Source: Octopus sinensis (lineage: Eukaryota). Taken from it: 21,140 nt of DNA. The DNA lies in contig NW_021823829.1 in the NCBI RefSeq assembly GCF_006345805.1, forward strand, positions 1 through 21,140. Reading direction: 5' to 3'. Position numbers and translations under genes: made by a program. This document shows positions 3,932-14,706 of this stretch, piece after piece. Positions within the stretch are counted from its first letter, which is position 1, and each line of letters opens with the position of its first letter. The notes beneath the pieces were generated by a model. That model saw nothing but the letters and a program-made list of their open reading frames with translations, searched no databases and was not told the origin of the DNA.

Positions 3932-5391
3932 TAAGCTTATAACTTTTATTATTTTTGGGGAAGTAAACAATTTCCTGTTTTAGAAGTCGATGGACAATTT
4001 TATATAAGTAGGGAAAATAACTTTTATTTTAAGTTGATTTAAAGAAACGTCACCCCCAACTAAAGAAAACTAGCACTACTTTTGACCAATATCATGTAAA
4101 ATTCTGGGGGTGGGTTCATAATGCCTACTCAAATTTTTACCAAACTTGGTGTGCTGACATAATATAATGCAGAAGCAGTATGTCTCAAATTTCAGCTTTC
4201 AAGTTTAAGTAGTTTAATAGTTAAAGAGTTTTTAATTTGTTACCACTTAGGCTCTACTTTGGGAAATATCCTCTTCCTCTCCTTTTTATTTCTGTGACGC
4301 TAAAAACTCAGACTATATTAACTTTTATTCAGAATAGTAGACTTATCCAACTAGAGTATCTAAAATAGTGTCTCATAAAAGAGAAGTGCTTGTGTCACTC
4401 AAAGAAGCAGAAAAACCTGGACGAAGAATCTCGTGCAATTTCAAGACCTACATAGGAAAAGAAGACCTGTTCCTCAAGAAGAGAATTCTTTGGAAAACAA
4501 CTTCAGGATACCAATGAAACTTCAAATTGTCGGTCGTTACCTGTTCCTTGGAGGTGTTATCAAAGGAAGGAAAGAAAGAGCAAAAGAAATTTCGAAAGAA
4601 GTAACTTTTATAGTAAAAGAAATTAAATTTCCTCTATTCATCAATTCAAAATATACAAGCAAAAGTAGAAAAGTTCTGAATATCTACGATTAGTGTGTAA
4701 AACGAGGAAAATATGATTCATTGAAAGGAAGTTTTGACATCACAAAGGTAAACGGTGAATGGCTGTGCAGTGAGGACAGAAAGTTATCTAACAAAACATA
4801 TTAATTCTTTGTTACGATTAAAAATTTGCTAGCATTCAGCACCCCTTTTCTTATACAGTTATTTAAAATTGGAATTAAACATATAAAGTTTAAAATGTGT
4901 ATTGTTTTTAATTTTGTATGTTATCGAATGCTTGTAGTAGCCTCTGTCTTAAAATAGCCTAGTTTTGAACCTTTGCATAGAGCAATTTCAATTCAGTAAT
5001 CTTAAAAACGTATAAATACACTTTCATTCCACAGCATTTACAAGGATTTAGGCAACGGAAATACTGAAGTGTGGGTCTAGTGCCACCTCGTGATTATAGA
5101 TTTAAAAAGCTCATAACTCCGAAACTACTTCAACTAGAAAGCCGAAATTTCAGATATACTATTTCTGCATTGCATTGAGTCAACACACCAAGTTTGGTAA
5201 AAACTTGAACAGGCGTTATGAAACCCCTAGAATTTTGCATGATTTGGATCAAAAGTGGTGATCGATTTCTTAAGATGGGGGTGAGATTTCTTTCAAATAA
5301 AGAAAAATAAATATTAGTTTCCTGACTTCTATGAAACTCTTCATCGAATTAGAGTATAGGTTTATTAGATTGCTAAACAATCATAACCCTA
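3932..5391 (+). mobile_element. Non-autonomous hAT-like DNA transposon (1460 bp) with long imperfect subterminal inverted repeats and a transposase remnant
   Basis: 8-bp flanks GTATCGAT (3924-3931) and GTGTCGAT (5392-5399) match 7/8. Degenerate termini TAAGCTTATAACT vs reverse complement TAGGGTTATGATT match 9/13. About 250-bp inverted arms (~3985-4237 and ~5100-5348) share a perfect 20-bp core, TTTTTACCAAACTTGGTGTG (4134-4153 and 5184-5203). Confidence 0.8.
4433..4804 (+). pseudogene. Degenerate N-terminal transposase fragment inside the hAT-like element
   Basis: ORF 4433-4693 continues in frame past TAG as CVKRGKYDSLKGSFDITKVNGEWLCSEDRKL; protein-like, lies inside a TIR element, no catalytic domain visible. 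Confidence 0.55.
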
Positions 5392-9683: not shown

Positions 9684-10282
9684 CGTAATTTGGTATCCAA
9701 AAAGAAACGAAGAAAAAACACAACAAAAAACAAACAACACGAGGACGTGGTGCATGCAAAGTATTAAAAGATGCTCAGGGTACGATAAATATAGAAAGTA
9801 AGGAAATACATTTTTATGCAGTCAGAACTTTTCTTTTAAGCATATCATTGTTCAGAAAAGTATAAATCTAAGGTTTATAGAGAAGGGGACTGAACGAAGC
9901 CATTTACTTCCGGTGGGAAAATTCTGAAAAGGTGATTTCGAAATCGAAACTACTGTACACCAGAACTAGAGTCATATTAACTACATGCTGTCAGAAATTC
10001 GAATGCCCATGGATCAAACTATTTTTTTATCCCATTCCACATTAGAATTGGCGTGAGAAAATATATTGTCAGAGAGTTAAGGTTAGTGCGGCGACTATAT
10101 GTAGGCGTTATAAAAAATCTTAAGTTGGATTCCACTAAACGTTTTGTTCATATTGGATTACTATGACTGCACTAAAATATATCTTTTTGTATTCTATTTT
10201 ATAAAAATAGACATTCATTTTCTAAATTACTCTTTGCTTTATAAAAATGCAAATTAAATAGTAAAACTGATTTCAATATATA

Positions 10283-10460
10283 CAGGGTTGGCCAAAAGTC
10301 ACTCGACAGTAAATCAAAATTCCATAAATACTGTCTGTTATTCTGTATTGACTCGAATAGGAAAATGTGTTGCTCATGAAGGATTTCAGTTTGAACAATT
10401 TTCATGATGTTCCATATTTAGATGCTTTTATAAAATTCATGCAGTTGTTATTAAATTATG
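10283..10460 (+). mobile_element. Internally deleted Tc1/mariner relic (5' TIR fused to the transposase C-terminus)
   Basis: TA|CAGGGTTGGCCAAAAGTCAC is a Tc1-type TIR start; 10333-10407 reads VCYSVLTRIGKCVAHEGFQFEQFS*, the R..C...G..FE C-terminal pattern of Tc1/mariner transposases; no 3' TIR found. Confidence 0.65.
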
Positions 10461-10469
10461 CAAATATAT

Positions 10470-10745
10470 ATGTTAAATTCAATTTAATGGTTGTCCACTT
10501 ATATTTAAACACTATTTTAATAATAAATAAGTGGCTGAAGATTGCTCGACATTTTAAAAGTGACGTAATACTTACAGTGTTTAATAAAATTAAGTAGCAT
10601 GAAACAATTGTACTACTCTACCTCGGATATACTTGTTGCTTATTTTGATTATAATCACCCCATTTGATTTATATGGATAATACCATACAAAATTCTGGTG
10701 CCTTTGACTTAAGTACCATATTCATCTGAATCTAAATTTTGTTGA
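10470..10745 (+). mobile_element. Penelope-like pseudo-LTR fragment, copy 1 (5' boundary uncertain)
   Basis: Contains a hammerhead core; 10625-10745 is 116/121 identical to 13793-13913; ends in a TA/TG microsatellite. Confidence 0.7.
10530..10617 (+). ncRNA. Degenerate type I hammerhead ribozyme
   Basis: AGTGG-CTGAAGA(10535-10541)-tTGCT...AGCAt-GAAA(10601-10604)-CAATTG-TA|CTACT. Stem I has 5 bp (one G.U); stem II has 4 bp with a U.U closing mismatch; stem III is short and palindromic (ACAATTGT); GUA cleavage triplet at 10610-10612. Confidence 0.65.
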
Positions 10746-11017: not shown

Positions 11018-11455
11018 CTGAAAACAGAAAGAATAAACATAGATATAAAAATTTGCTGAAATCTAATGTTTCATCCAGTTGTCACTTTACTGCTTTTTTT
11101 TTCTAAAAAAAAAAATAAACTGAATGATCTATGTTACGTTTTGAATATATTCTCCCGCCTTGTGTTTACACACTTCAAGATAAATTCACAAACTCATGCA
11201 CACACATGCCTGCATATTGCTTATGTATGAAATTATGTTTGTATGTACGTGTCATGTTTCAAATGCATTTTTCCTTATTAGATAGAAAGGAGAACGTCAA
11301 GCTATGCGTCAGAAGTTTGTTTTAACACTAAATATTTAAACACTATTTTAATAATAAATAACAGATAGATTCCGGTTTTGCTGTTGTAGTTTTTCTTAAG
11401 ACGGTATAAAGCTGATGTTTCAGCTGGCTATTTTACACTGGCATCTGTATGTAAT

Positions 11456-13349: not shown

Positions 13350-13737
13350 TACGATATTTATTAGACAGAAGAGTTAAAATCATTACAGTTACATTTACAA
13401 ACATTGATAGAGATAGGGTCGAAAAAAATCTTGCGGTATTTGTTCCGGCTCTCAAATTTCTGAGGTCAGTTCCTGCAAGGTCATCTATACCTTTCGAATA
13501 CAGACCCCCAGTAGTTCCACAGCCTCTGTTTAAAACAAGGAAAAGTAAATAATACAGACGATCTCTCCAATTCCTATAGAACTAAATTGGTTTTGCATAT
13601 CAGTTTTGAACTGGAATATATCTGAAGCGCTTCTGTTTCCATTATGTTATGCTAAATAAACAAATTGCAGGAAATTAGGCGGAAAATTACTGCTTACAAA
13701 ATTATTTCGTACCAGACTATAATCTATTAATGCGTAT

Positions 13738-13914
13738 ATATATAATCAAAATAAGCAACAAGGATATCAAAGGTAGTGTAGTACACTACTTTGGATATCC
13801 TTGTTGCTTATTTTGATTATAATCACCCCATTTGATTTATATGGATAATACCATACCAAATTCTGGTGCCTTAAACTTAAGTACCATATTCATCTGAATC
13901 TAAATTTTGCTGAA

Positions 13915-13964
<50 letters not shown>
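13738..13964 (+). mobile_element. Penelope-like pseudo-LTR fragment, copy 2, with 5' inverted duplication and (TA)n tail
   Basis: 81-bp palindrome 13741-13821 (38/40 positions complementary); 96% identical to copy 1 over 121 bp; candidate 6-bp TSD GCGTAT (13732-13737 and 13965-13970). Confidence 0.75.
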
Positions 13965-13965
<1 letters not shown>

Positions 13966-14706
13966 CGTATTAATATGAATAACTATATAGTCTACTGACT
14001 AGTTTTTTTTTGTTTGTTTTTCTTTTGTTTCACGCTAGACCACTGGTAGCAAAATATTTCTGAATAATCTTTTACTACCCTGAAATTTATTAATATATAT
14101 ATATATATATATATGCTTGTATGTGATGAAAAATTAATTATAAAACCAGTTGATGAATGATACACACACAAACATGCTGCTTTTCATCACGTATTTCAGA
14201 CTAAAATGTTAACTAATGCCATAGGAGGAGGTTGAGGAACGAACATCCTGGTTTAACAATAATCTGACAACACGCGCATACACAAACGCATGCACAGATG
14301 CAAACATATACATGCCTGTGTCTGTCTATTTGTGTGTATATCTCTACATATAGAGAGACAGACAGAAAGAGGGGAGAGAGGAAGAGAGAGGGAAAGAGGG
14401 AGAAAACGTAGAAGGAATTTTCGTCCACTGACGTAATGTTATAAGTATGCACTATGAGTGCTCCGTTTGGTTTACCTCTAAAACTCCGGTTTGTAACTGC
14501 GATTGAAAAGTGTTGTGTTGAGAATACCTATCAAAAGCGACTAGAAGTGGCTTCTCCTTGAACGGGTAGATATAGATTAAAGTAACAAAAAAATGAAAGA
14601 GCAAAAAACAGTTCAGATACAGAATATCTAAATCAAATATTTTTTTTCGAAGGGTGCCAGTTGTTTTGCTCTCTCACTTTTTATTTTAAACTATATATAT
14701 ATAGAT

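Follow-up and report, generated by a model that had tools for sequence, protein, structure and literature searches.

Head-to-Head Insertion of Penelope-Like 3′ Repeats in Octopus sinensis and the Position of Its Junction Near a Predicted Hammerhead Cleavage Site

Described Systems and the Window Insertion

Penelope-like elements (PLEs) of the Hydra clade are distinguished, in the clade description, by the change of the DKG motif to DKT, a CxCX5C linker, a C-terminal EN, RWK, CxxC and CxH around the conserved E and N, the lack of CCHH and a preference for (TA)n (PMC8557442), and the role of the hammerhead in these elements is termed unclear in the same text. In a reported in vitro reaction, both strands were cut and extended by a Penelope protein, reverse transcription began at two internal sites that correspond to the tail ends, and hammerhead cleavage was dispensable (PMC11167929). 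Penelope palindromes have also been read as self-priming on an antisense template, a reading that counts against double priming (PMC3846280). For the metazoan non-LTR retrozymes, an origin from PLE pLTRs has been proposed (PMC7229834; bioRxiv 10.64898/2026.07.22.740005). A literature search, mostly outside subscription papers and Repbase, returned no paper mapping PLE 5′ ends to the hammerhead cut.

The window, that is, the whole stretch of 21,140 nucleotides of O. sinensis DNA analyzed here, contains two members of one repeat family: a 5′-truncated copy with the hammerhead whole (copy 1) and a fold-back insertion. Repeat positions were numbered from q1 (window 10527); the GUA triplet is q84–86, the cut is predicted after q86, and q87 is the first base after the predicted cut. 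The features are the following.

10527..10745, plus strand: copy 1, another 5′-truncated pLTR of the same family with the whole hammerhead, matched at 95–97% by the 39 others of the 40 genomic copies scored
10530..10617, plus strand: type I hammerhead motif with the cut predicted after 10612, from covariation across 29 copies
13732..13737, plus strand: GCGTAT, left copy of a candidate TSD, by sequence match to the right copy
13741..13781, minus strand: inverted, tail-less pLTR arm from q127 (outer end) to q87, readable to q83 (13785) via microhomology
13782..13785, unstranded: TACA/TGTA microhomology of 4 nt, common to both arms, which leaves the junction ambiguous
13782..13918, plus strand: forward 5′-truncated pLTR arm that starts at q88 (or as late as q92) and runs to the fixed 3′ end, with a tail of about 95 nt beyond q127
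13919..13964, unstranded: (TA)23 run at the right side
13965..13970, plus strand: GCGTAT, right copy of the candidate TSD, by sequence match to the left copy

The 81-bp palindrome noticed in a sequence-only reading of this DNA was recovered at 13741–13821, with arms of 40 bp, two mismatched pairs and its centre at 13781. Its folding energy was −52.5 kcal/mol (z −14.5), and none of 200 shuffles was equally good. The forward arm matched copy 1 at 93% over 137 nt. A short TA run lies to the left of the insertion (approximately 13735–13744), and the TA runs flanking it are likely an expanded TA target. That reading had also named a (TA)n tail and a GCGTAT duplication; the (TA)23 run and both hexamers are present, but the TSD stays a candidate, as a GCG-type duplication occurred in only 1 of 83 fold-backs, namely the window, and shuffled pairs averaged 0.79, which is chance level for the set. 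A search for the empty site of the window insertion gave the window itself as the sole match, the flank being single-copy.

The position of the junction was then compared with the predicted cut. The earlier alignment of the reverse complement of 13761–13784 with copy 1 from 10610 was reproduced as quoted, but it includes the GUA itself, which is absent from cleaved RNA. The alignment is also one base longer (TGTA). Because the forward arm shares these bases through the TGTA/TACA microhomology, the inverted end lies anywhere in q83–87 and the forward arm starts at q88–92 (locus L279 of the fold-back set described below). The subfamily sequence across the predicted cut is TGTA-C-TACA, a small natural inverted repeat, and five readings of the junction tie. 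Since the 4-nt microhomology permits all five, the junction is not pinnable to the cut, and since the TGTA-C-TACA joint overlaps the predicted cut, the window copy cannot show whether the RNA was cleaved. Base 13781, at the centre, is a G and is complementary to the C at q87; q87 thus belongs to the inverted arm rather than to the forward arm, which the inverted arm exceeds in length by one base or more.

Other repeats were observed in the window. A perfect 30-nt direct repeat (10501–10530 and 11332–11361) has one unit beginning shortly upstream of copy 1 and the other about 590 nt past the end of copy 1; it may represent a long target duplication that encloses copy 1 together with downstream DNA. 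At 10281–10310, a TA is followed by CAGGGTTGGCC, which we take to resemble a Tc1/mariner end; its inverted partner was not found within the window. Two segments of about 250 nt (3984–4235 and 5102–5350) form an inverted repeat with 78% identity and may be either the termini of a DNA transposon or two copies of a repeat in opposite orientation.

The Repeat Family, Its Parent Element and the Hammerhead Motif

Copy 1 gave 2,706 candidate matches in the 2.72-Gb genome, of which 40 were scored. The family copies have a fixed 3′ end and variable 5′ ends, some of them more than 1 kb further upstream. Exact-pattern counts over the genome yielded 4,489 matches for the tail anchor and 2,687 for the ribozyme core (core control 0), and, among 100 tail-anchored copies, 63 span the hammerhead core and 38 have an inverted arm within 880 nt.

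For the parent search, eight longer stretches of the family were fetched. One of these, L212, consists of an inverted pLTR with tail, a broken ORF, a 3′ UTR of about 0.9 kb and a tail-less pLTR. Its Pfam matches were RVT_1 (E 0.02) and GIY-YIG (E 0.0011), both below the Pfam cut-off; the ORF is interrupted by stops and frameshifts, and no intact ORF was found in this search. The RT piece of L212 had 1,030 homologues at E ≤ 1e-10, many of them of about 700 aa. The pLTR of L212 is about 80% identical to copy 1, and that of a further locus, L217, which retains remnants of the linker and GIY-YIG, is 95–96% identical. Both copies are degenerate; L212 shows ADKTGN (DKT) and CNCRIRSNC (the CxCX5C linker), the linker of L217 reads CNCRIRSKC, CEHC was found in L217 and CIH in both, and L212 has RWI where RWK is expected. 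An asparagine-rich insert lies between the RT and the linker (L212:3040–3420; L217:936–1270), as it does in rotifer Penelopes according to the text available (PMC3846280).

Judging from these domains and motifs, the repeat is the 3′ end of protein-coding PLEs with RT and GIY-YIG, and the putative parent fits the Hydra clade, as that clade is described, by DKT, CxCX5C, the C-terminal EN and TA targeting, and perhaps by CxxC/CxH. An assignment to Neptune was dropped given DKT and CxCX5C. The window insertion is of a standard kind for PLEs, and the family is probably a new member of a known clade. The sequence-only reading had proposed to look for a parent with RT and GIY-YIG, which L212 provides in spite of its broken ORF and sub-threshold matches, and had suggested a small non-autonomous, retrozyme-like family, which was abandoned, the repeat being the 3′ end of such elements and L217 lying as close as stated above to copy 1.

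The family resembles the EN+ PLEs of the Hydra clade (Craig et al., 2021, PMC8557442; e.g., Hydra-1_Obim), as far as they are described there, in the RT with a C-terminal GIY-YIG, DKT and the CxCX5C linker, perhaps in CxxC and CxH around the conserved E and N, in the hammerhead near the 3′ end, and in the (TA)n targets and the inverted 5′-truncated copy with a tail at one side only. It differs from them in the loop II of the hammerhead (about 50 nt, against 8 nt in Hydra-1_Obim; PMC8557442 supplement), in the tail (about 95 nt, against the 30–40 bp described), in the RWI of L212 in place of the RWK of the clade, and in the length of L212, which exceeds the usual <3 kb because of the ~0.9-kb 3′ UTR (PMC8557442). 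Like Poseidon of Anolis carolinensis (Frangieh et al., 2024, PMC11167929), it has AT-rich targets, a hammerhead in the pLTR and, probably, two fixed RT starts defining the tail and cutting and extension of both strands. Poseidon belongs to a different clade, however, and no reads starting or ending at the cut were reported there (PMC11167929), whereas a weak excess of DNA ends at the cut was observed in the copy 1 family. The type I hammerhead with a short stem III and a palindromic loop is shared with the metazoan non-LTR retrozymes (PMC7229834; bioRxiv 10.64898/2026.07.22.740005). By contrast, retrozymes as described consist of short units in tandem, each with its own hammerhead, and are non-coding and unlinked to an RT ORF, whereas the copy 1 family is dispersed with nested 5′ ends, is continuous with RT/EN-coding copies and runs into coding sequence, and the window insertion has no hammerhead core. 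The tandem arrays that the sequence-only reading had proposed to look for did not appear as short units in 60 loci of 3 kb; same-strand pairs were found in two of these loci (one pair, 1,197 nt apart).

In copy 1, the hammerhead comprises stem I (10530–10534/10613–10617), CUGAAGA (10535–10541), stem II (10542–10546/10596–10600) with a loop of about 50 nt, GAAAC (10601–10605), the palindromic loop AAUU and the GUA (10610–10612). Loop III is palindromic in the family (AAUU or GAUC), as in the PLE hammerheads that act as dimers (PMC4209133). Covariation was analyzed in copy 1 and 28 of 30 core-bearing loci, the two with length changes being excluded; the core (CUGANGA, GAAA and UH) and stem III were fixed by the search pattern, and stems I and II were free. 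These two stems covary, with 42 two-sided changed cells against 18.5 in shuffled and 0–3 in slid controls, counts of a type that kinship inflates. The closing pair of stem II (G10.1–C11.1) is G–C in 6 of the 29 copies, non-standard in 18 and U–U in copy 1. A search of the window against Rfam gave no hammerhead match, and minimum-energy folding of copy 1 did not recover the hammerhead (z about 0.6). Covariation, the single line of support, indicates that the hammerhead fold in copy 1 is real, with cleavage predicted after the GUA, as had been proposed. In four loci (L370, L374, L382, and L485) a common internal deletion of about q23–86, between short direct repeats and ending at q87, has removed most of the hammerhead.

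Fold-Back Insertions and the Position of Their Ends

Fold-backs with arms ≤120 nt apart numbered 516 in the genome (control 0), in agreement with the earlier recognition of an inverted, Penelope-type pLTR piece in the window. The first 50 all had two arms and a one-sided tail, with gaps of 6 to 118 nt, and many apexes fell on small palindromes. The mapped set was selected by gap size (19–80 nt) and includes the window: 154 matches were obtained, two were left out, the remaining 152 corresponded to 150 places, and the removal of four duplicates gave 146 fold-backs, or 131 when 15 with inserts >6 nt were set aside. Inner ends were mapped by joint split scoring. This method took the place of BLAST-based end mapping, in which TA runs and palindromes gave spurious ends, and of one-sided extension, which ran too far in palindromes.

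The layout of (TA)n, inverted arm, forward arm, tail and (TA)n proved to be standard in the Penelope family of copy 1. The suspected TA association was confirmed: of the 146 fold-backs, 131 have TA on their left side and 133 on their right. The outer end of the inverted arm was most commonly q127 (79/146), with q123 in 21/146, and the tail end was mostly at q220–229 (93 of 133 fold-backs); the inner ends were scattered between about q36 and q106. In 67 of 131 fold-backs the inverted arm must extend beyond the forward arm in the 5′ direction, and nesting is possible in 52. Microhomology of ≥2 nt was detected at 52 of 100 insert-free junctions, against approximately 22% expected under a rough 0.3-per-base model.

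One apex, an ATGCAT palindrome near q90, recurs in 11 of 131 fold-backs (L243, L249, L310, L314, L322, and others) and is the commonest junction in the 19–80 nt set. In L486 the complementarity of stem I links an inverted arm that stops at q87 with a forward arm at about q9; therefore, the ribozyme stems themselves provide microhomology.

With respect to the predicted cut, an arm extends past the site in 88 of the 146 fold-backs. The weighted ends (262 in total) amounted to 4.0–8.2 per position over q82–86 (about 6.5), 13.9 at q87 and 12.5–14.9 at q88–91; q87 accounts for about 5% of the ends, roughly twice the rate just upstream. Junctions compatible with q87 were found in 26 of 146 fold-backs, with q88 in 30 and with q89 in 30, and both arms end at q87 in three insertions (L264, L375, and L386). 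Under a uniform null, nominal P was 0.009–0.04 for uniquely mapped ends and 0.02–0.13 for weighted ends. End patterns were also searched over the whole genome for q85–q88, with filters that were unequal among patterns; true ends were 19/37 at q85, 9/24 at q86, 30/41 at q87 (28 without two duplications) and, at q88, 19/30 when scripted and 42/71 by eye. Contigs of four runs, a type of data in which molecule ends are not visible, displayed no accumulation of molecule starts or stops, which weighs neither for nor against cleavage. The map of breakpoints relative to the GUA, which the sequence-only reading had called for, thus revealed ends that are spread widely and clustered at local micro-palindromes, with a small and weak excess of about twofold at q87 but no dominant peak, an outcome intermediate between a peak at the triplet and the uniform spread that would have refuted that reading. 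This excess may record some copying from self-cleaved RNA.

Origin of the Window Insertion

The window insertion is probably, with somewhat better than even confidence, a head-to-head pair of 5′-truncated Hydra-clade 3′ repeats formed from two primed cDNAs that were joined by microhomology. The nuclease of the element, of which the parent carries a GIY-YIG match besides the RT, likely nicks a TA run on both strands. Two starts of reverse transcription are likely, one at the tail end and one at q127, which are the two fixed outer ends observed in this architecture. The 3′ ends of the two unfinished cDNAs, whose inner ends vary, are then likely connected by a few complementary bases, and an excess of microhomology was observed at the junctions. 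The scheme is consistent with the in vitro results for Poseidon (PMC11167929). A minority of the templates may be hammerhead-cleaved. Double priming and the joining of two cDNA 3′ ends are read here from genomic fossils. The 5′ inversion of L1 by twin priming likewise involves two primed cDNAs and a microhomology joint; in L1, however, the two segments come from separate regions of a single RNA, whereas the arms in the Penelope family copy the same stretch from two fixed starts.

The model of the sequence-only reading was that a single cDNA reached the cleaved 5′ end, folded back on itself and copied outward. The near symmetry of the arms about q87, the self-priming proposed for Penelope palindromes in the source cited for it (PMC3846280) and the 52 of 131 fold-backs in which nesting is possible speak for it. 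However, it predicts C at 13781, where G is observed, and would need one substitution or an untemplated base; with the junction ambiguous and the centre base on the wrong arm, this origin was not upheld for the window copy. Nor does it explain why outward copying should stop at a fixed position, q127, beside TA, and it fails in the 67 of 131 fold-backs with a longer inverted arm, which cannot be a copy of the forward cDNA because it necessarily reaches further 5′. This asymmetry of arm length argues for double priming over snap-back, which we regard as very improbable. Only slightly less improbable is that the RT pauses in stem I (q87–91) of the uncleaved fold and so raises the number of ends without any cleavage. 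The excess does form a plateau that coincides exactly with the 3′ strand of stem I, but the plateau derives in part from the single palindromic apex with its 11 cases, and without these q87 stands highest at 13.9, with 10.1 as the next value; moreover, stem I has merely 4–5 bp.

The remaining alternative retains the two cDNAs and differs from the favored explanation solely in where and why the inverted arm stopped: the inverted-arm cDNA would have run off the cleaved RNA at q87 and been bluntly joined to the second cDNA at q88, and a real subset of the family insertions would come from cleaved RNA. An inverted end at q87 with a forward start at q88 is one of the five equally good readings of the window junction, the uniquely mapped ends number seven at q87 against a mean of 2.15 over q77–97 (nominal P 0.009), and the end patterns are richer in true ends at q87 than at q86 or q85. 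Against this, q90 also has seven unique ends, two of the seven at q87 (L257 and L364) are doubtful, resembling a small duplication and an internal deletion, and P rises to as much as 0.13 with weighted ends. The true ends at q88 are more numerous, and a block-step test did not single out q87, its ratio of 2.1 being matched at q85 and exceeded at q78. The hammerhead itself is a further difficulty, given the frequently non-standard closing pair of stem II (U–U in copy 1) and the poor in vitro cleavage reported for metazoan PLE hammerheads (PMC4209133). Such an origin of the window copy is considered rather unlikely.

It is conceivable, although doubtful, that the insertions of the family record in vivo cleavage by a Penelope hammerhead, with cleaved RNA templating a few percent of the cDNAs, and that they show the inverted ends to come from two independently primed cDNAs. 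The value of the family lies in the size of the data set, as its thousands of copies make both questions, in vivo cleavage and double priming, countable. If the excess of ends at the scissile bond were confirmed, it would show hammerhead cleavage to occur in vivo, as far as such evidence goes.
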